From: Eledone cirrhosa
Lineage: Eukaryota
Direction: 5' to 3'
Assembly: GCA_964016885.1 (NCBI GenBank)
Contig: OZ024754.1
Location: 14,508,001-14,572,000 of the forward strand
Length of the DNA: 64,000 nt
Under the pieces are notes generated by a model. That model saw only the letters and a list, made by a program, of their open reading frames with translations, had not been told where the DNA came from and searched no databases. Below, piece by piece: positions 1,057-64,000 of this stretch (within the stretch, counting starts at the first letter, position 1; every line of letters starts with the position of its first letter). The translations under genes and the position numbers were made by a program.

Positions 1057-1107
<51 letters not shown>

Positions 1108-1351
1108 TACACAGGTGTGTATGATTGTGTATAGAAGATTATATTAATAAAAGGAATTCCAACTTTGTCTGATTTACTCGTTTTATTTACAATCCTTTAA
1201 AATTTATAATGGTATTAGAATGAAATAGTATGGTAGAATAGTAAATGTTAAGTGTTAATTGAACAAGTACTTTCATGCTTTCGCAATCTTCAGGTTCATA
1301 ATGTGTGGTGACAGTCAAGTTTGCAATTTTCAACTGCACAGTTGAAATTGC
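1108..1351 (-). mobile_element. Short PLE-derived element, family A (pLTR-like, HHR-bearing), next to (TA)n
   Basis: Near-identical to 2138-2310 and 62044-62270; contains the HHR at 1260-1298; small fold-back at its 5' end (1323-1351). Confidence 0.8.
1260..1298 (-). ncRNA. Minimal type I hammerhead ribozyme
   Basis: Minus strand reads TGAAC-CTGAAGA-T TGC GAAA GCA T-GAAA-GTAC-TT-GTTCA: 5-bp stem I, intact core, GNRA-capped stem II, palindromic stem III AGTACT, triplet CUU. Confidence 0.8.
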
Positions 1352-2044: not shown

Positions 2045-2483
<439 letters not shown>

Positions 2484-5309: not shown

Positions 5310-5338
5310 CTGATGAGATGTCTTTAATGCGTCGAAAC
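5310..5338 (+). ncRNA. Hammerhead core motif (stems I and III not resolved)
   Basis: CTGATGA-GATG tctttaatg CGTC-GAAAC, with a 4-bp stem II. Confidence 0.45.
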
Positions 5339-5559: not shown

Positions 5560-5860
5560 ATGAAGGACATTCACATAATCAAAATATATGCTTTATTATA
5601 TATATGTCAAAGGTACTGCGTTGTTATTTCAGTACGTCTTCATCAGATAAAATATATGATTTGATATATGACATACCGCTACAGTCTTGGTTATACAATT
5701 CCAGTATTGGCAATACTGGAATTGTATAACCACGACTGTAGCGGTATGTTATATATCAAATCATATATTTTATCTGATGAAGACGTACTGAAAAAACAAC
5801 ACAGTACCTTTGCAATATATATAATAAAGCATATATTTTGATTATGTGAATATCCTTCAT
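5560..5860. mobile_element. ~300-bp near-perfect palindrome: head-to-head HHR-bearing element
   Basis: ~150-bp arms around CCAGTATTG-G-CAATACTGG (centre 5710); each arm carries TTTAT-CTGATGA...G(A/C)(C/A)A-TATATA-TA-ATAAA. Confidence 0.8.
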
Positions 5861-11743: not shown

Positions 11744-11904
11744 AAAGAATAGAGGCGTAACACACGAGTTGTGATATATTGGGAAAAGGAAAAGAAAATG
11801 CTGACAAATTGTTCCCAGTGAAAAATAGTTTAATTAGGAATAAGTATTAGTAATAAGTATAAGTAATAAGTATTGGTTAGTATTCAGTTTTAGTTTTAAG
11901 TGAC

Positions 11905-12370
11905 GTGGATCTTCGTAACGACCCTAAGATCCGCCTCTTCGGTGCTGTAGTGGAGTCTGTGCTGCTGTACGGGTCTGAGACTTGGACACTGACCAAGAAA
12001 TTCACTCAGATGGTGGATGGGTGCTACACGAGAATGCTGAGGATGGCTCTGAGCATTAATCAGTATACACTGAGGATGAAGAACTCAGAGCTGTACGGGA
12101 GCCTCCCAAACGTCAGCTCAAGAGTAGCACAGAGGAGACTGAGGTTACCCGGACATGCTCACCGACATCCAGAGTTGACATTGCACTCAATGCTCCTGTG
12201 GGAACCCCTGCATTGACACACTGGAAGAGGAAGACCGAAGTTGACATATGTTGATGCCCTAAGGACAGACACTGGTCTGTTGGAGACGCAGGACATGGCA
12301 GCGATAATGATGGACAGAGACCGCTAGAGAGAACTCGTCCTTGGTTTTCGGGAATTTTACCCGCCCTAGA
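11905..12370 (+). mobile_element. RTE-clade LINE, 5'-truncated ORF2 C-terminus (pseudogenised)
   Basis: Translation KIRLFGAVVESVLLYGSETWTLT...RRLRLPGHAHRH...WEPLH*HTGRGRPKLTYVD...MMDRDR* matches the RTE post-RT region; in-frame stops. Confidence 0.9.
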
Positions 12371-13469: not shown

Positions 13470-15190
13470 TCTTCTGGTTTTATAATTTCACAAAGTTTTA
13501 CCAATAGAGAGAGAGTCGGTTTCTAACATAGACACAAGACTCTCTCATTGGAATTTACACATCAACTAGGTAGATATGTATGCATGTGTAGATATGGATG
13601 TTATTGTATGTGTGGATGTGTATATTTTGAGTTGTAAGTGTGCATGTGTATATGCTTTGAATCTGTACATGTGTATATGCAGTTATTAGATGCAACATTT
13701 TTGGAATGTTTTACATATTTTGACTGTTCCATTAATGGATTGTACTTGTAATTTCCTAACTAGTTGTGTTCTTTCTGTTCCTGTGAAGCCTAGCTTCTCA
13801 AGATTTGTATTGAGGCAGTTACTAACATATCCCAGTGCCCCAATAATCACAGGCATAAATCTGAAGGTGTAATCAGGGTGGAGTATCTGCAGATTTCTCA
13901 TCAGTTCTGCATAAATATTCTCCTTTTCGCTAATCTTTGATATTATATTGGCATCTGCTGGGCAGCTAGTTTCCACTACTGTGCATGCTTTCTTCTCCCT
14001 GTCCCATATCATAATATCTGCTCTGTTATGCCTGCATTTTATTGGGATTTTACTGGAACGTTCCACCATGGATGTCTTCCAAATTGCTGTAGCTTTTAAT
14101 GTGTTTATTATCGGGGCTATCTCTTTTACAAACTGCATTGTACAGTATTTGGGACACTACATCAAACCTCATAGGTAGATAGTACCGCGATGACATCTTT
14201 GGACAGCTGCTGATGACATGGGTGATATCCTCGATGTTAGTTCTGCAGAGTCTGCACTTGTTATCACATCTAGGTGTTTTGCCTGCATCCCTATCTCTTT
14301 TGTGAATCAGGTATTTCGTGTTAATCTCCTGTTCTTGGATTGCAAAAGCGTATCTTTCAAAGTGGGAGCCAATATAGCGTTTGTTGGTCCAAGATAGACT
14401 ACTTTCCTTATCTATATTACTCTCACTCTGGAGCTTCCTGGCAACATATCCATGCATGATTTTTTTCTGATAAGTATCTAATTTTTCATCCATGGATTCA
14501 CTGCAATACTGCTGAGCAACTTTCCTGGGTGTGAGTTTTTGATTATCACACAGGGAGTATCTCTCGAGGAGTTCCTTCCCAACTCTCATGATCTTATCTG
14601 TTTCATGCAGATAGACTTGCTCGAGAAACGGGCTCCTACGCTTCGAGGTTCGTAGATGTTGTCGGAGAGATATGATGCGACATTCAAATGTTGTCTGGAC
14701 TGATGTTAGGCCTCTACCTCCCTGCTTACGTTTCAAGTAAAGGCGGTCTATGTCACTGTTGATGTGGAAGTTTCCGGTGTAGTTTAGTATTTTTCGAGTT
14801 CCAACATCAACTGCTCGGATTTCGTCTATCATCCAATTGAGTATTCCAAGGACAGGCACAGAAAACACATTGTGAGCCACTGTTTTGTTTTGCGAAGAGA
14901 GTTCCGATGACCAGATCTTTCTTAATCGGGTGTAGTATTCCCTGGTTACGCGTTCTTTATTACAGATACTACTATAGGATATGTTCTCATCTATCCCCAG
15001 GTATCTGTAGCAGTCCTCATCAGATATCGGTGAAACAGTTAGGCCATTGATGACAATGTTGTTAGATTGGGTTGTTGTTTTTCCCCGCTTTACAGTCATG
15101 TATGAGCATTTATCTTGGCCAAACTCCATTCCTATATCCTTTGAGAACGTTGTAACCAGGTCAAGATTTTTCTTCGTCCCATCCATGTTC
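13470..15190 (-). mobile_element. R4/Dong-like non-LTR retrotransposon with restriction-like endonuclease; 5'-truncated and frameshifted
   Basis: ORFs 14050-15186 and 13686-14138 give late RT/thumb motifs (FSKDIGMEFGQDKC, YRYLG, DRLYLKRKQGGRGL), a CCHC knuckle CRLC...ITHVISSC and RLE motifs HNRADI...VVETSCP...KENIY...VIIGALG; flanked on both sides by (TATG)n. Confidence 0.92.
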
Positions 15191-16159
15191 TTATATATGT
15201 ATGTATGTGTTTATGTATGTACGTACGTATGTATGTATGTATGTATGTATGTATGTATGTATGTATGTATGTATGTATGTATGTATGTATGTATGTATGT
15301 ACATGTAGCGCTAAGGTAGCGCTTTTGTTCAGTCTATGAACATTAATAAATAATATATATATGTACATATATGTATATGCACACATGAACCTTGGCATTA
15401 CATTTTAGTTCCTATTAGCAACGTATTTAAACAATGTGAGTGTACAATTACATATGCAATAATCGATGCAATGTGTTTATGTTTACAAGAATTAAAGAGA
15501 CAGGAAGATTATGCATAAAAAGTACCATATAAAGAAAATAGTGAATATTTACCAGAAGTCACATCGAGAAGTATTTACATGTTTTGGTGACTATTCACTT
15601 CGTCAGCTGCTGTTGAACAGTTTCCCATTCAGTTACACAACATCTCGCAGTTGTTGACATTATAAATGATTTATATGTATTTTTGAAAAAATTTAATAAT
15701 ATACAAGAAGAGGGAAAAGGGGGCTTTCTGTTTTAAAAGGGGGAGGAAGAAATGGAATGGACAACATCTTCATTCTTAGATGTGCGGTGTATCTCAACTT
15801 CATCCCACAGACAATATAGTAAGCTCTGTTGCGGAGAACAGCCAGTGACACCCGCTGCACCTGCTAGTCCACTTCATGTGACGTTTTTCTCGGGGAAGAC
15901 TCACGAGAATCTCCCTTTATATATCTCCAAGAAATAATGACTTAGAAAGCTACTGAAATAAAATATATCTCTTGAGAATTTTCTACTTTAGTAATATAAG
16001 GTGTGACACTTAAATAACACGTCAAGTGTATCCACTTACCTGAACAACTACTTATTTACCTGCCTGCCTACTTGTCACCTTCCGATAATGTCTCATTATA
16101 CCGCCCTCTTTGCCTTTATCTCTCTCTATGTCATATATATGTGTACACACACACACACA

Positions 16160-23077: not shown

Positions 23078-23777
23078 GATTTCATTTATTGGCCACAAGG
23101 GCCGACATATAGGGGACAACACAATAGACTGGGACAGTGGGGTTTTACGGAAAAATCGAGTAAACAATATGAATAACAATACCAAAGTAACAAGAAAATT
23201 ACAACAAGAAAAAATTCCCCAATAGGGGGGGGGGGGCCACCCAGGGTTCGCTCAGGTACTCCACCAATCCTGAACGAGCCGACGCTTCGAGAGCCCCCTG
23301 GAAGGGCACCCCTCTCCTCCTCAAATTTACCTACCTACAGCCGCATGACCAGAGTAGGCCCACTCACACGGGCCATTCTCGCCACATTCACCCACCTTTC
23401 AGCAAATGTACTGGGGGGTAGCACTTCTCTCTCCACCCTCACCTTCCTTTCCAAGTGAAACTTGAAAAAGTTGATGAGGGATTGGCCGAAGAGAAAAATG
23501 TCTGTCTTCAGTCCTTTCAACGTCGTCCACCATACAACCTCTTTCGCTACTGCCACCAGACAGAGGAAAATTGCCTGCCCTTCCTGGCCAAAAGAAGGCG
23601 GCGGGTCGATCTTCACTGTGGACTCGGCCGATAGCCGGATCCGTTCTACACGCGACAACAGCTGTTCAACATAACTCCACAAGTCAGTAATGCACGGACA
23701 CTGGACGAGTGCGTGCAGACGGGTTTCGTTGCTCTGCGCGCATCTCGGACAGGTCCGTCTGACAGCACTTCCGTGCC
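23078..23777 (-). mobile_element. L1/Tx1-like LINE 3' fragment
   Basis: Minus frame TCPRCAQSNETRLHALVQCPCITDLWSYVE (ORF2 C-terminal CCHC knuckle) continues as ORF 23335-23682; ends AATAAATGAAATC(ATT)n. Confidence 0.85.
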
Positions 23778-23779
23778 TG

Positions 23780-23817
<38 letters not shown>

Positions 23818-32447: not shown

Positions 32448-32904
32448 ATATATATATATATATATAATTATATATTCGTGTACAGATATGTTTGCATACA
32501 CAATAACAAAATATAAACAAACGTATTTATTTCACGAGGCTCGATAGGGATAAATATATATCAAATATATAAGAACCCTAGAGAAAATCCCGAGCAACGC
32601 CGGGCCGTTCTGCTAGTAAACACTAAAGCTGAGAATTGGCAGTTTTTAGGGCGTCATATTAATGATTCTTCTGTATTTGGTACAGGAGATCAACTTTGTC
32701 TTTCATCCTCTGGGGGCTACCTCCCTTCTTACAACCATAGGCGCTGAGCTGGTGAACCGCGGGTGTGAGCCTCGGAGGATAGTAAGGGAGATGGATCTTC
32801 CAACGTATATCTCTCTTACCATCCTCCGGGGGAACGCCTTCTCTGTTCTGTCGCCGGGGTCGTGAGGTTACCAGCACGTGGGATTCCATTTGATCATAAA
32901 AGTG

Positions 32905-35638
32905 AAAGATGGGGAGTGCGTGAGAGGCGGAGGCGATGACAGTGGGTGTTTGGCTCCTCTGTGTTCGGACCTGGTGTACATGAAAGATGGGGAGTGCGTG
33001 AGAGGCGGAGGCGATGGCAGTGGGAGTTTGGCTCCTCTGTTTTCGGACCTGGTGTACTTGAGAGATAGGGAGTGCGTGAGAGGCGGAGGCGATGACAGTG
33101 GGTGTTTGGCTCCTCTGTGTTGGGACCTGGTGTACATGAGAGATGGGGAGGGCGAGAGAGACAGAGGCGATGACAGTGGGAGTTTGGCTCCTCTGTGTTG
33201 GGACCTGGTGTACATGAGAGATGGGGAGGGCGAGAGAGACGGAGGTGATGACAGTGGGAGTTTGGCTCTTCTGTGTTGGGACGTGGTGTACATGAGAGAT
33301 GGAGAGAGCGGGAGAGATGGAGGCGATGACAGTGGGAGTTTGGCTCTTCTGTGTTGGGACGTGGTGTACATGAGAGATGGGGAGTGCGTGAGAGGCGGAG
33401 GCGATGACAGTGGGAGTTTGGCTCTTCTGTGTTGGGACGTGGTGTACATGTATGTGATAGAGAGGGCGAGAGAGACAGAGGCGATGACAGTGGGTGTTTG
33501 GCTCCTCTGTGTTGGGACCTGGTGTACATGAGAGATGGAGAGAGCGGGAGAGATGGAGGCGATGACAGTGGGAGTTTGGCTCCTCTGTGTTGGGACCTGG
33601 TGTACTTGAGAGATGGGGAGGGTGAGAGAGAGACGAAGGCGATGACAGTGGGAGTTTGGCTCCTCTGTGTTGGGACCTGGTGTACATGAGAGATGGAGAG
33701 GGCCAGAGAGAGACGGAGGCGATGACAGTGGGAGTTTGACTCTTCTGTGTTGGGACCTGGTGTACTTGAGAGATGGAGAGGGCGAGAGAGATGGAGGCGA
33801 TGACAGTGGGAGTTTGGCTCCTCTGTGTTGGGACCTGGTGTACATGAGAGATGGAGAGGGCGAGAGAGACGGAGGCGATGACAGTGGGAGTTTGGCTCCT
33901 CTGTGTTGGGACCTGGTGTACATGTATGTGATGGAGAGGGCGAGGGAGACGGAGGCGATGACAGTGGGTGTTTGGCTCCCCTGTGTTGGGACCTGGTGTA
34001 CTTGAGAGATGGGGAGGGCGTGAGAGGCGGATGCGATGACAGTGGGTGTTTGGCTCCCCTGTGTTGGGACCTGGTGTACTTGAGAGATGGGGAGGGCGAG
34101 AGAGACGGAGGTGATGACAGTGGGAGTTTGGCTCTTCTGTGTTGGGACGTGGTGTACTTGAGAGATGGGGAGTGCGTGAGAGGCGGAGGCGATGACAGTG
34201 GGAGTTTGGCTCTTCTGTGTTGGGACGTGGTGTACATGAGAGATGGAGAGAGCGGGAGAGATGGAGGCGATGACAGTGGGAGTTTGGCTCCTCTGTGTTG
34301 GGACCTGGTGTACTTGAGAGATGGGGAGGGTGAGAGAGAGACGAAGGCGATGACAGTGGGAGTTTGGCTCCTCTGTGTTGGGACCTGGTGTACATGAGAG
34401 ATGGAGAGGGCCAGAGAGAGACGGAGGCGATGACAGTGGGAGTTTGACTCTTCTGTGTTGGGACCTGGTGTACTTGAGAGATGGAGAGGGCGAGAGAGAT
34501 GGAGGCGATGACAGTGGGAGTTTGGCTCCTCTGTGTTGGGACCTGGTGTACATGAGAGATGGAGAGGGCGAGAGAGACGGAGGCGATGACAGTGGGAGTT
34601 TGGCTCCTCTGTGTTGGGACCTGGTGTACATGTATGTGATGGAGAGGGCGAGGGAGACGGAGGCGATGACAGTGGGTGTTTGGCTCCCCTGTGTTGGGAC
34701 CTGGTGTACTTGAGAGATGGGGAGGGCGTGAGAGGCGGAGGCGATGACAGTGGGTGTTTGGCTCCTCTGTATTGGGACCTGGTGCACATGAGAGATGGGG
34801 AGGGCGAGAGAGACAGAGGCGATGACAGTGGGAGTTTGGCTCCTCTGTGTTGGGACCTGGTGTACATGAGAGATGGGGAGGGCGAGAGAGACGGAGGTGA
34901 TGACAGTGGGAGTTTCGCTCTTCTGTGTTGGGACGTGGTGTACATGAGAGATGGGGAGTGCGTGAGAGGCGGAGGCGATGACAGTGGGAGTTTGGCTCTT
35001 CTGTGTTGGGACGTGGTGTACTTGAGAGATGGAGAGGGCCAGAGAGAGACGGAGGCGATGACAGTGGGAGTTTGACTCTTCTGTGTTGGGACCTGGTGTA
35101 CTTGAGAGATTGAGAGGGCGAGAGAGAGATGGAGGCGATGACAGTGGGAGTTTAGCTCCTCTGTGTTGGGACCTGGTGTACTTGAGAGATGGAGAGGGTG
35201 AGAGAGATGGAGGCGATGACAGTGGGAGTTTGGCTCCTCTGTGTTGGGACCTGGTGTACATGAGAGATGGAGAGGGCGAGAGAGACGGAGGCGATGACAG
35301 TGGGAGTTTGGCTCCTCTGTGTTGGGACCTGGTGTACATGTATGTGATGGAGAGGGCGAGGGAGACGGAGGCGATGACAGTGGGTGTTTGGCTTCCCTGT
35401 GTTGGGACCTGGTGTACTTGAGAGATGGGGAGGGCGTGAGAGGCGGAGGCGATGACAGTGGGTGTTTGGCTCCTCTGTATTGGGACCTGGTGCACATGAG
35501 AGATGGGGAGGGCGTGAGAGGCGGAGGCGATGACAGTGGGAGTTTGGCTCGTCTGTGTTCGGACCTGGTGTACTTGAGAGATGGGGAGGGCGTGAGAGAC
35601 GGAGGCGATGACAGTGGGTGTTTGGCTCCTTTGTGTTC
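32905..35638. repeat. 78-bp tandem satellite, ~35 units, with 708-bp higher-order repeat
   Basis: Unit GAGATGGGGAGGGCGAGAGAGACGGAGGCGATGACAGTGGGAGTTTGGCTCCTCTGTGTTGGGACCTGGTGTACATGA; variant ORF starts recur at 33667/34375/35083 and 33903/34611/35319. Confidence 0.95.
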
Positions 35639-36390
35639 TCATATTGACATATTTATCAGTAAAAGGTAAGGGGGAACAGTCAAACAATTCATCTGTGTTT
35701 ATTTGGTCTTCGTTAGCTAAAGCCAGACCTCTCGGTGTGGATAAATAAATTATCAATCCAGTGTTCGGGAACGATTCTTTCTCTCGAAGAAATCGGTTGT
35801 GTCTGATCTGAAGAGGGATGGGCTCCGTCAGGTTTTTAATGCCCAAGACGCTGTGTATACTGACGGTGCTCTCACTACCACCGTTACTACCACCACCCAT
35901 ATACCACTACCACCATCCATACACCACTACCACCACTCCTCGACCAACACCACTGCCACCACTACTATCACCCCTGCACCAACACCACCCCCTCATCCAT
36001 CCACCATTGCCGCCACCACCACCACCACCACCACCACCACTATCCCCCAACCATCCACTAGTACCACCCCCCACTCCCCCAACCTCACATGCCACCACTA
36101 TTTTCACCCGTCCTCCAACACCACCACTACCCCCAACCCATCCATCACCACCCCTCCTCGACACCGCCACTACCCCCCAACCCACCACCACCCACTCTCC
36201 CAACACCACCATCAAACACTACCATCAACACCAGCGCCCTCTGTTGGTAGTGTTCCCTAACTACAATATGATAAGTCTCTTAAAATAAAGTATTTATAAA
36301 TAAAAATCTTATTTTACTTTTTAGTTGGGTGTGAAGGAGAAAGAGAAGACAAGCACTAAGATATATACTGCAGAGAACACTGCATTTTAT

Positions 36391-37639: not shown

Positions 37640-37660
37640 TACGCACACACACACACAGAG

Positions 37661-37731
<71 letters not shown>

Positions 37732-37797
37732 AATTTAGGAATTTATAAATTTCTGGTTGGTTGGTTGGTTCCACAACCAGATAGTTGTTTATATATT

Positions 37798-37840
37798 GTC
37801 AAAGTTCTTTCGTCACACATTCTGTGACCTCTTCAGTGAC
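37798..37840 (-). ncRNA. Minimal type I hammerhead ribozyme
   Basis: Minus strand reads GTCA-CTGAAGA-G GTCAC agaatgt GTGAC-GAAA-GAAC-TT-TGAC; lies in a ~170-bp element between (TA)n tracts. Confidence 0.82.
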
Positions 37841-37891
37841 TGGGGATTCTTTTCTTTTGTTTTTGTGCCTCTCCTTTGTTCTGTCCTACGC

Positions 37892-37936
<45 letters not shown>

Positions 37937-38174
37937 TTTTGCGAGGTTTTTGATATGAAATCGTGTGTCGAAACAAATATTGTTATACTTGGGGAGGGTC
38001 ATATTTGTGTAATAATAATAGTTTCTACTTTAGGCACAAGGCCAGCAATTACTCAGTGCATTACTGGTACTTTATTTTATCGACCCCGTAAGGATATAAT
38101 AATATTGCCAGAATTAATAACAGAATATAATATTAATTCTGGCAATATTATTACACAAATATGACCCTTCCCAA

Positions 38175-61609: not shown

Positions 61610-61799
61610 TAGGAAATGAGTCAGGAACCCAACGGCTGAGCCCCGCGCGTTTCGACAGCTAGATTTGAACTAGCTGTCGAAACGGCCGGAGCACAACCGT
61701 TGGGTTCTTGACTCTTTTCCTATTACCCACTCTCTACTACCCTAAGTATTGAGTACTCTGGTGCGTAATGGTCCACCTGGTATCTTACCACACCCTCTT

Positions 61800-61984: not shown

Positions 61985-62034
<50 letters not shown>

Positions 62035-62193
62035 TATAAATATACACGGGTGTGTATGATTGTGTATAGAAGATTATATTAATAAAAGGAATTCAAACTT
62101 TGTCTGATTTACTCGTTTTATTTACAATCCTTTAAAATTATAATGATATTATAATGAAATAGTATGGTAGAATATTAAATGTTAAATGTTAAT

Positions 62194-62232
62194 TGAACAA
62201 GTACTTTCATGCTTTCGCAATCTTCAGGTTCA
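62194..62232 (-). ncRNA. Minimal type I hammerhead ribozyme (family A)
   Basis: Identical to 1260-1298. Confidence 0.8.
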
Positions 62233-62294
62233 TATTCAGTGGTGACAGTCAAGTTTGCAATTTTCAACTGTAATGAGATGGCTAAAATCTGTGC

Positions 62295-62392
62295 CTTATA
62301 TACAGTAAAAAGAGGCTACAGAATGCTAAGTTTTGCAAACTGTATTTCGACCAATCGGTGTGTGGTTTCACTAGATTACTAAAGCTGATTGG
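62295..62392 (-). promoter_or_regulatory. Putative Pol II promoter of the PLE pLTR
   Basis: Minus-strand TATATAAG at 62302-62295 and CCAAT boxes at 62351-62355 and 62388-62392; the TATA box lies ~32 nt upstream of the 5' end of the short family A copy. Confidence 0.55.
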
Positions 62393-62721
62393 TTTAGTCA
62401 TCACGGTTTGTTGAGCATCACTTTTATTATTATTATTGTTGTTGTTGTTGTTAATGTGGGTAGTCGACATGGTCGTAGGCGTAGTCATAGTAGAAGTAAT
62501 ACTCCTAAGCATTATTATTGTTCATTTAGCTTGGGTTGGAATTTATCAATAAAATTATTTTCTTTAATTTTTCTCTTGATTTCACTTGGGCTGTGTAGTT
62601 TGTAGAATGGAAATATTATAAATATTTTCTCCTCCAAGACTTTTCAATGTACTTTCTAAATTCAGTGCTATATTTTCCTCTATTTCTTGGTAGAGTTGTA
62701 TCCCTTTATATCCCATCGCTG

Positions 62722-63112
62722 GGAGAAGTGATTCCCACCAGATTCACAGTGCCATTTATATTAGACGCAGTCAGACTTATTCTGGAAAACAACACATTCT
62801 TCTTCAATGGAAAGAATTACATCCAAATTAGAGGCACAGCGATGGGAACGAAGTTTGCTCCCGTTTACGCGAACTTTCTAAAGGGATACTTAGAACAACA
62901 ACTCTACCAAGAAATAGAGGAAAAATATAGCACTGAATTTACAAAGTACATTGAAAAGTCTTGGAAGAGATACCTTGACGACTGTTCCATCATCTGGACA
63001 GAATCTCTAGATTCTCTGAATGAGTTCAATATTCTCCTGAATAACCTACACCCATCTCTCCAATTTACAAAAGAGATGAGTAGTACCAAATTACCATTCC
63101 CAGATATAGTTG
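62722..63112 (+). pseudogene. Penelope-like reverse transcriptase fragment (Naiad/Neptune-like)
   Basis: Open frame missed by the ORF track: IPTRFTVPFILDAVRLILENNTFFFNGKNYIQIRGTAMGTKFAPVYANF...WKRYLDDCSIIW...[24 protein letters not shown]. Confidence 0.92.
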
Positions 63113-64000
63113 TATTGGTGGTGGTGGTAGTTGTGGTAGTTGTGTTGGTGGTGGTGGTGATTGTCGTAGTTGTGTTGGTGGTGGTGGTGGTTGTGGTAGT
63201 TGTGTTGGTGGTGGTGGTCGTCGTTGTAGTGGTGGTGGTAGTTGTGGTAGTTGTGTTGGTGGTGGTGGTAGTTGTAGTAGTTGTGTTGGTGGTGGTGGTC
63301 GTCATTGTAGTGGTGGTGGTAGTTGTGGTAGTTGTGTTGGTGGTGGTGGTGGTCGTCGTTGTAGTGGTGGTGGTAGTTGTGGTAGTAGTGCTGGTGGTTG
63401 TAGTTGTGGTAGTTGTGTTGGTGGTGGTAGTTGTGTTGGTGGTGGTTGTGGTAGTTGTGTTGGTGGTTGTGGTCGTCGTTGTAGTGGTGGTTGTAGTTGT
63501 GGTAGTTGTGTTGGTGGTGGTGGTAGTTGTGGTAGTTGTGTTGGTGGTGGTTGTAGTTGTGGTAGTTGTGTTGGTGGTGGTGGTAGTTGTGGTAGTTGTG
63601 TTGGTGGTGCTGGTAGTTGTGGTAGTTGTGTTGGTGGTGGTTGTAGTTGTGGTAGTTGTGTTGGTGGTGGTGGTAGTTGTGGTAGTTGTGTTGGTGGTGC
63701 TGGTAGTTGTGGTAGTTGTGTTGGTGGTGGTTGTAGTTGTGGTAGTTGTGTTGGTGGTGGTGGTAGTTGTGGTAGTTGTGTTGGTGGTGCTGGTAGTTGT
63801 GGTAGTTGTGTTGGTGGTGGTGGTGGTTGTGTTAGTGGTGGTGGTAGTTGTGGTAGTTGTGTTGGTGGTGGTGGTAGTTGTGGTAGTTGTGTTGGTGGTG
63901 GTGGTGGTTGTGGTAGTGGTGGTGGTAGTTGTAGTAGTTGTGTTGGTGGTAGTGGTAGTTGTGGTAGTTGTGTTGGTGGTGGTGGTGGTTGTGGTAGCTG
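63108..64000. repeat. GT-rich 30-bp minisatellite (TTGGTGGTGGTGGTAGTTGTGGTAGTTGTG)
   Basis: Directly visible; truncates the RT fragment. Confidence 0.92.

Follow-up and report, generated by a model that had tools for sequence, protein, structure and literature searches.

Organization of the locus

The window is the whole 64,000-nucleotide stretch of Eledone cirrhosa DNA analyzed here. Near its right-hand end, on the minus strand, the sequence reads as the terminal repeat (pLTR) at the 3' end of a Penelope-like element (PLE) of the endonuclease-positive type. Signed positions are relative to the C of CAGTTG, with 0 at 62270. The motifs named in the initial annotation, from the GIY-YIG stop codon through the CCAAT boxes, TATA box, CAGTTG and hammerhead to the tail and (TA)n, are all present where it had placed them on this strand, the tail and (TA)n lying below 62044.

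62723-63114, plus strand: inverted RT fragment, the second head-to-head arm of the relic, ended by (ACC)n-type repeats
62628-62699, minus strand: 72-nt RT piece running directly into the endonuclease end, with about 930 nt skipped internally
62515-62630, minus strand: C-terminus of the GIY-YIG endonuclease and stop; frame ending in FPFYKLHSPSEIKRKIKENNFIDKFQPKLNEQ, TAA at 62517-62515
62416-62514, minus strand: 3' UTR or upstream part of the pLTR, containing (AAC)n(AAT)n and lacking about 120 nt at 62418
62351-62392, minus strand: CCAAT box at 62392 (forward) and reversed box ATTGG at 62355 (read from the sequence)
62295-62302, minus strand: TATA box TATATAAG at 62302, its first T lying 31 nt before the modal start
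62270, minus strand: CAGTTGAAAATTGC, 32 nt after 62302 (read from the sequence)
62260-62274, minus strand: zone of copy 5' ends (70 of 100 arms), with the mode at A 62271, the putative transcription start
62245-62271, minus strand: predicted 8-bp 5'-terminal RNA hairpin (fold prediction), a confounding feature for the start peak
62194-62232, minus strand: minimal type I hammerhead motif (stem I TGAAC/GTTCA, CUGAAGA, stem II, GAAA, palindromic stem III)
62227 and 62208, minus strand: hammerhead cores CTGAAGA and GAAAGTACTT, respectively; predicted cut between 62199 and 62198
62075-62193, minus strand: downstream pLTR up to the first 3' end (+195, AT-rich), at which 18 of 100 arms end
62025-62074, minus strand: PLE tail up to the second 3' end (+232 to +245), into (TA)n; 69 of 100 arms end there

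This copy had been taken for the parent of the short copies. It is instead a rearranged relic, deleted and head-to-head, a full-length tandem copy being found at another locus, L116. It differs from L116 in its inverted RT arm (62723-63114), the RT-to-endonuclease jump at 62628 and the gap of about 120 nt at 62418. The inverted fragment matches L116 at 95.7% over positions -1661 to -1271 and gives a Pfam RVT_1 match below the cut-off (E=0.0088); the L116 segment homologous to the endonuclease end of the window copy gives a GIY-YIG match above it (E=1.5e-5). The degenerate (ACC/AAC)n array that terminates the inverted arm occupies 63115-64000.

Two free short copies lie at the other end of the window.

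1090-1336, minus strand: short copy beginning at CAGTTG, with tail and (TA)n (alignment)
1338-1351, plus strand: 14-nt inverted arm beginning at ACAGTTG (sequence)
2120-2310, minus strand: short arm (+8 to +245), hammerhead deleted (alignment)
2303-2456, plus strand: head-to-head partner arm (about +4 to +195), with a 40-nt internal deletion and without the tail (alignment)

The first (1109-1336) begins at the same C of CAGTTG as the window copy, with 95.6% identity, and the arm at 2303/2310 starts no more than 4 nt from CAGTTG, as the initial annotation had proposed for both copies. Both are head-to-head structures, a point absent from that annotation.

Full-length copies and classification

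Counts of exact 21-mer matches were made genome-wide (3.0 Gb in 1,796 contigs). L116 is a natural full-length copy, consisting of a pLTR, a broken 3.6-kb RT-endonuclease ORF, a second pLTR and a further 250 nt of ORF start. In L115 and L148, and twice in L116, the ORF start follows a pLTR directly, an arrangement of pLTRs from partial tandems. RT and C-terminal GIY-YIG are carried by one reading unit: segments of L116 and L117 match GIY-YIG with E=1.5e-5 and 9e-4, respectively, the RT motifs GTAMG and YLDD are found upstream of this domain, and the RVT_1 match is weak (E=0.011). No unbroken ORF was seen among the PLE copies examined. The CX2-5CxxC linker preceding the C-terminal GIY-YIG reads CNDSRCGTC in L116 and L117, and the motifs DKG, GLKF and CX4CxxC are visible in L116; by the criteria in excerpts of PMC8557442, these motifs point to Neptune or Nematis. 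The PLE hallmarks of an optional tail (3' ends at +195 or +232 to +245) and an adjacent inverted 5'-truncated copy (54 head-to-head pairs) are also present. In L115 (5779-8274, minus-strand coordinates), an open LINE-type RT frame of 832 residues lies beside the PLE copy.

Distribution of 5' ends

The hammerhead 21-mer has 7,003 exact matches in the genome, a lower bound for the number of copies, counted in arms. Sample 1 comprised the first 100 places among these matches, aligned to L116, and sample 2 comprised 100 arms anchored at +159, toward the 3' end, partly overlapping sample 1; both were drawn from a single contig (contig 1, first 57 Mb). The 5' ends form a sharp peak on the full-length PLE, rather than the uniform distribution expected of random truncation. 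In sample 1, 70 of the 100 position-ordered arms begin between -4 and +10, around CAGTTG, and the modal start (30/100) is the A at 62271 (-1), one base before the C favored by the initial annotation. The remaining starts lie at -99 to -11 (one), further upstream (25, two of which are cut by the locus edge) and at +11 to +45 (four), with none at -10 to -5. From the density in the flanking sequence (11 starts in 346 nt), 0.48 starts would be expected in the 15-nt peak zone. The peak is retained when pairs are collapsed (56 of 79 insertions) and in sample 2 (57 of 100 arms).

The short copies had been attributed to the PLE, and this attribution is borne out by their two 3' ends with an optional tail, their TA-rich 3' flank (74/100) and their inverted arms. 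Two other origins were rejected: solo LTRs produced by recombination would retain the promoter, and a start at the ribozyme cut accounts for merely 4 of 100 arms (+71 to +73). The genome-wide step from 171 promoter 21-mers to 7,003 and 7,891 downstream 21-mers was set aside as overstated, the promoter region varying by subfamily.

A start at TATA spacing

Of 93 distinct long copies, 78 have a TATAWAW whose first base is exactly 31 nt upstream of the modal A; in three the motif lies at other offsets, and 12 lack it. The same spacing holds in a subfamily with a different TATA box and spacer. With six TATAWAW in 4,129 nt of the element body, the chance of such a match is about 0.4% for three allowed offsets. 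The usual distance from TATA box to transcription start is -31/-30. The short copies therefore share a start at canonical TATA spacing, as had been argued against random 5' truncation, and the A at 62271 is probably the transcription start of the PLE RNA, judging from the sequence. CCAAT and reversed CCAAT boxes also occur in long copies of several subfamilies; like the TATA box, they lie upstream of the start, and the short copies are left without them.

An extra G before the start is a known trace of a copied cap (excerpt of PMC4859970); among the matches listed, a hand count found it at 18 of 74 TA-joined starts and at one of 27 later starts (Fisher p=0.02), unlike the fetched loci, in which the proportions were 10/50 and 22/96 (p=0.83). 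Contig depth in one sample (three contig sets) rises about tenfold at the start; this was not counted as support, because contigs do not reveal where an RNA begins and may themselves be DNA from the same source.

3' ends and head-to-head pairs

The 3' ends are bimodal, at +195 (18/100 arms) or +232 to +245 (69/100), with a TA run on the 3' side of 74 of the 100 arms. An inverted arm abuts 46 of the 70 start-site arms, the other 24 having no inverted partner; many further start-site arms without a partner occur among the matches listed. Genome-wide, there were 2,094 head-to-head junction rows, with most pairs counted on both strands, and the commonest junction was the near-palindrome ACWGT. An assembly artefact is an unlikely source of these palindromes, since their arms have an average divergence of 3% and distinct 3' ends.

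Across all loci, 54 distinct pairs were identified, of which 24 combine a +195 end with a tail and 17 have a tail on each arm. Fourteen are informative, with starts at least 4 nt apart: the tail is on the 5'-longer arm in nine and missing from it in five. At least five pairs thus need two primings, because a fold-back copy cannot gain a tail absent from its template, although later trimming of the tail would give the same pattern. In the 29 pairs in which both arms cover the unit, arms are 0.030 apart within a pair versus 0.061 between pairs (0/5000 permutations), a likeness that may be raised by shared subfamily age or gene conversion. In pairs with a long arm, the partner begins at the start site in merely one of 16, the long arm being paired with another long arm in 15. 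Because of this closeness within pairs and the scarcity of long/start-site pairs, both arms appear to come mostly from the same pLTR of one template.

Two clusters of similar copies are likely to be local segmental duplications: at L097, near-identical copies with shared flanks lie 2.2 kb apart and are probably not new insertions, and five alike junctions are spread over 330 kb at G000:C1:217329309-217663376.

Origin of the short copies

We consider it probable, on the basis of sequence comparison, that the short copies are run-off cDNAs, internally primed at the pLTR end of a TATA-initiated RNA and often on both cut strands. The endonuclease would cut a (TA)n target, and in a tandem master the RNA would begin in the first pLTR, at -1. 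Internal initiation by the RT would fall at +195 or about +245. In the first (5') pLTR, such priming would yield a cDNA of 200-250 nt running off at the transcription start; in the second pLTR, it would yield long, randomly truncated copies. Where both cut strands prime, the two cDNAs would join by their 3' ends, aided by the near-palindrome ACWGT at the start, and either arm of the resulting head-to-head pair may have the tail. Lacking the promoter, the short copies would be likely dead ends. Most of the template would be RNA of the element itself, and truncated copies that retain the promoter may contribute some in trans.

The in vitro precedent comes from another clade (Poseidon). In the Anolis PLE, reverse transcription is initiated internally at two neighboring sites close to the pLTR-ORF junction, which define the tail, both strands are cut and extended, and RNAs truncated at the 5' end give shorter products; the template requires RNA downstream of the priming site and is mainly RNA with an uncut hammerhead (PMC11167929). 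Several observations count against the run-off reading. The proportion of long copies varies between subfamilies (2/28 versus 15/34), so one fixed master architecture is insufficient for all, and extra sources of short copies may exist. In addition, start-site partners of long arms are rare, the predicted hairpin begins at the start, both samples are from one contig, and a second PLE family has no peak of similar sharpness. Retroviral strong-stop DNA is the short first cDNA running off the 5' end of the RNA. We extend the comparison only tentatively to PLEs with a pLTR promoter in general, for which a strong-stop-like molecule may be the main product. An RT dimer would use two sites of the first pLTR, in its own sense RNA, to prime both cut DNA strands, extend each to the capped start and join the two cDNAs.

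The initial annotation favored a different origin, which we regard as rather unlikely: promoter-bearing solo or truncated pLTRs would be transcribed into a short hammerhead RNA, copied in trans by the PLE protein as a defined non-autonomous unit. This reading predicts the same start peak, an AATAAA is present at 62122, and PLE mobilization in trans has been reported (excerpt of PMC3846280). Promoter-only copies do exist, extending to -146 (L033/L200), -116 (L223) and -70 (L226), and the ACA-type subfamily is enriched in short copies (two long to 26 short in the unbiased sample, compared with 15 to 19 in another subfamily). In this subfamily, however, 251 of the 923 exact matches, a denominator that misses copies starting after 0, have native upstream sequence, and most of the 30 fetched upstream-bearing copies (L200-L229) extend into the ORF. 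Solo pLTRs would also lack the sequence past the priming site that the Anolis PLE template needs (PMC11167929). The 3' ends of the short copies are the same as those of long copies and need not, therefore, be transcript ends; nor is the postulated 230-nt transcript required, because internal priming can set the 3' end.

A separate unit with a lineage of its own was not recovered in the comparison of 95 short with 103 long copies, the latter enriched by targeted searches. The seven commonest haplotypes each contain both long and short copies, and the nearest long and nearest short copies are equally close (both 0.020). No short-only base allele was found among these copies, the sole short-only allele being a gap; a short-only haplotype suggested by sample 1 also has long copies genome-wide. 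As regards the features of SINE-like elements, the short copies have neither diagnostic variants of their own nor known promoter boxes inside the copy.

It is improbable that the start peak is instead an RT stop or joining hotspot, with the -1 to +25 stem folding or annealing through the near-palindrome and the RNA starting further upstream. The predicted 8-bp stem begins exactly at -1, and this explanation would suit both the 46 start-site arms that abut an inverted arm and the near-palindrome as commonest junction; it would not explain the 24 start-site arms without an inverted partner or the fixed -31 TATA and the CCAAT boxes, and no junction of snap-back form on the stem was found in the fetched loci. 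More improbable still is self-priming on an antisense template, a published hypothesis for the palindromes of rotifer PLEs (excerpt of PMC3846280), with the peak as a structural or antisense boundary: fold-back predicts the pairing of long arms with long arms (15/16), but not the tail on the 5'-shorter arm in five of 14 pairs, the same start in solo copies, or a boundary matching a sense-strand TATA promoter. The run-off reading offers a sense-template alternative to that hypothesis.

The hammerhead and other hammerhead families

The motif fits the minimal type I hammerhead of PLEs, with CUGANGA and GAAA cores, stems I and II and a short palindromic stem III, as described for PLEs in an excerpt of PMC4209133. 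Stems I and II appear in the predicted fold, the z-score of which is merely -0.9, no better than shuffled sequences. Rfam gave no hammerhead match on the element; over the window, the matches listed (150 of 248) were TA-repeat noise. Conservation of the hammerhead core columns was not above that of the median column. Among the matches listed (100 of 119), a hand count placed about 12 of 46 TA-joined starts at +62 to +75, fitting the predicted cut (+72), and five of these 12 or so had no shared bases, versus none at two other such positions. Copies starting at the predicted cut thus give a weak hint of hammerhead cutting in vivo.

The initial annotation had also called for the histogram to be repeated on other hammerhead families, one of which lies in the window.

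37650-37950, minus strand: second hammerhead PLE family with C-terminal GIY-YIG (loci L230-L259; 11,141 exact 21-mer matches)

This family has head-to-head pairs and dispersed 5' ends: by eye, about half of the arms at the first 30 places are long, and about seven of the 30 start within a 20-nt zone. No comparably sharp start peak was found (n=30), and no TATA box was noticed. The sharp peak of the first family does not, therefore, reflect a general artefact of the method, and it may not be common to hammerhead PLEs. Several copies of the second family begin at AAGATGGCG, a start motif that we take to be YY1-like.

Hammerhead-like CTGANGA...GAAA motifs were also seen in short repeats ending in (TA)n at 5310, 17094, 17855 and 18786, likely pLTRs of other PLE families; the last three recur in fetched loci. 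An abundant head-to-head repeat of another family lies at 61610-61790 (52 matches in the loci), its junction seemingly inside hammerhead stem II, not before the hammerhead, and a head-to-head pair of hammerhead-like motifs at 5646 (minus) and 5774 (plus) belongs to yet another family. The window further contains fragments of LINE-type reverse transcriptase frames at 13686-15210 (minus), 11881-12216 (plus) and 23335-23781 (minus), and a long tandem repeat array at 32659-35906 with minus-strand open frames, the longest of about 1,000 codons.

Comparison with known systems

The PLE described here has in common with Neptune and Nematis elements, as presented in excerpts of PMC8557442 and PMC3846280, a single RT and C-terminal GIY-YIG ORF, the CX4CxxC linker, DKG, partial-tandem pLTRs, an adjacent inverted 5'-truncated copy, an optional tail, microsatellite targets and a pLTR hammerhead. 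In the same excerpts, 5' truncation is frequent and variable, whereas about 70% of the arms here start at one TATA-linked point; most insertions of the present PLE are without coding sequence. With Poseidon PAc of Anolis carolinensis it shares AT-rich targets; two adjacent RT start sites defining the tail and the cutting and extension of both strands with uncleaved hammerhead RNA as the main template, established for PAc (PMC11167929), are proposed here. PAc belongs to another clade and its hammerhead overlaps the ORF start, unlike the present one; the main text of PMC11167929 gives the 3' ends of genomic copies, not a promoter 5' peak.

The pLTR promoter of Drosophila virilis Penelope likewise drives the downstream copy of a partial tandem, but it is internal and TATA-less (excerpt of PMC2377424), whereas the present promoter has upstream TATA and CCAAT boxes. 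Because these boxes precede the start, start-site copies lose the promoter. SINEs, by contrast, have an internal promoter and breed as families (excerpt of PMC4859970); the present copies leave the promoter behind. Non-LTR retrozymes are also short, non-coding, pLTR-related and present as many dispersed monomers with a type I hammerhead, and form head-to-tail tandems thought to arise via ribozyme-cut circular RNA (excerpt of 10.64898/2026.07.22.740005). Unlike retrozymes, the present copies are solo or head-to-head, start about 72 nt before the cut site and do not form a separate lineage; among the 100 anchored arms, short units were not found in any head-to-tail array. The two pieces made by L1 twin priming are non-overlapping, whereas both arms here copy the same stretch. 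Two primers on one template, giving rise to inversions, would be common to both systems (excerpt of PMC4859970).

PLE anatomy and pLTR promoters (excerpt of PMC2377424), pLTR-related retrozymes (excerpt of 10.64898/2026.07.22.740005) and internal priming (PMC11167929) are already in print. Searches made largely in open-access literature listed no report of a PLE whose copies mostly start at the promoter start site.

Implications

The route by which PLEs come to insert in tandem, in inverted orientation and with tails is a standing question, and just one PLE has been studied in vitro. The thousands of natural products in this genome lead to sharp predictions, namely that transcripts are capped at a single base, that priming occurs at two sites, and that sense RNA gives rise to paired products. 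For annotation, thousands of "solo hammerhead" repeats would have to be assigned to one PLE, as its by-products, and not to a SINE-like or retrozyme family; the numerous inverted pairs could also act as sources of hairpin RNA. Under the run-off model, the genome would record where PLE RNA starts. If the strong-stop reading is true, it would account for thousands of promoterless hammerhead hairpins and explain the head-to-head palindromes of PLEs without an antisense template; it would also supply raw monomers for the origin of retrozymes, and PLE transcription starts and rare ribozyme cuts would be readable from genome sequence alone.
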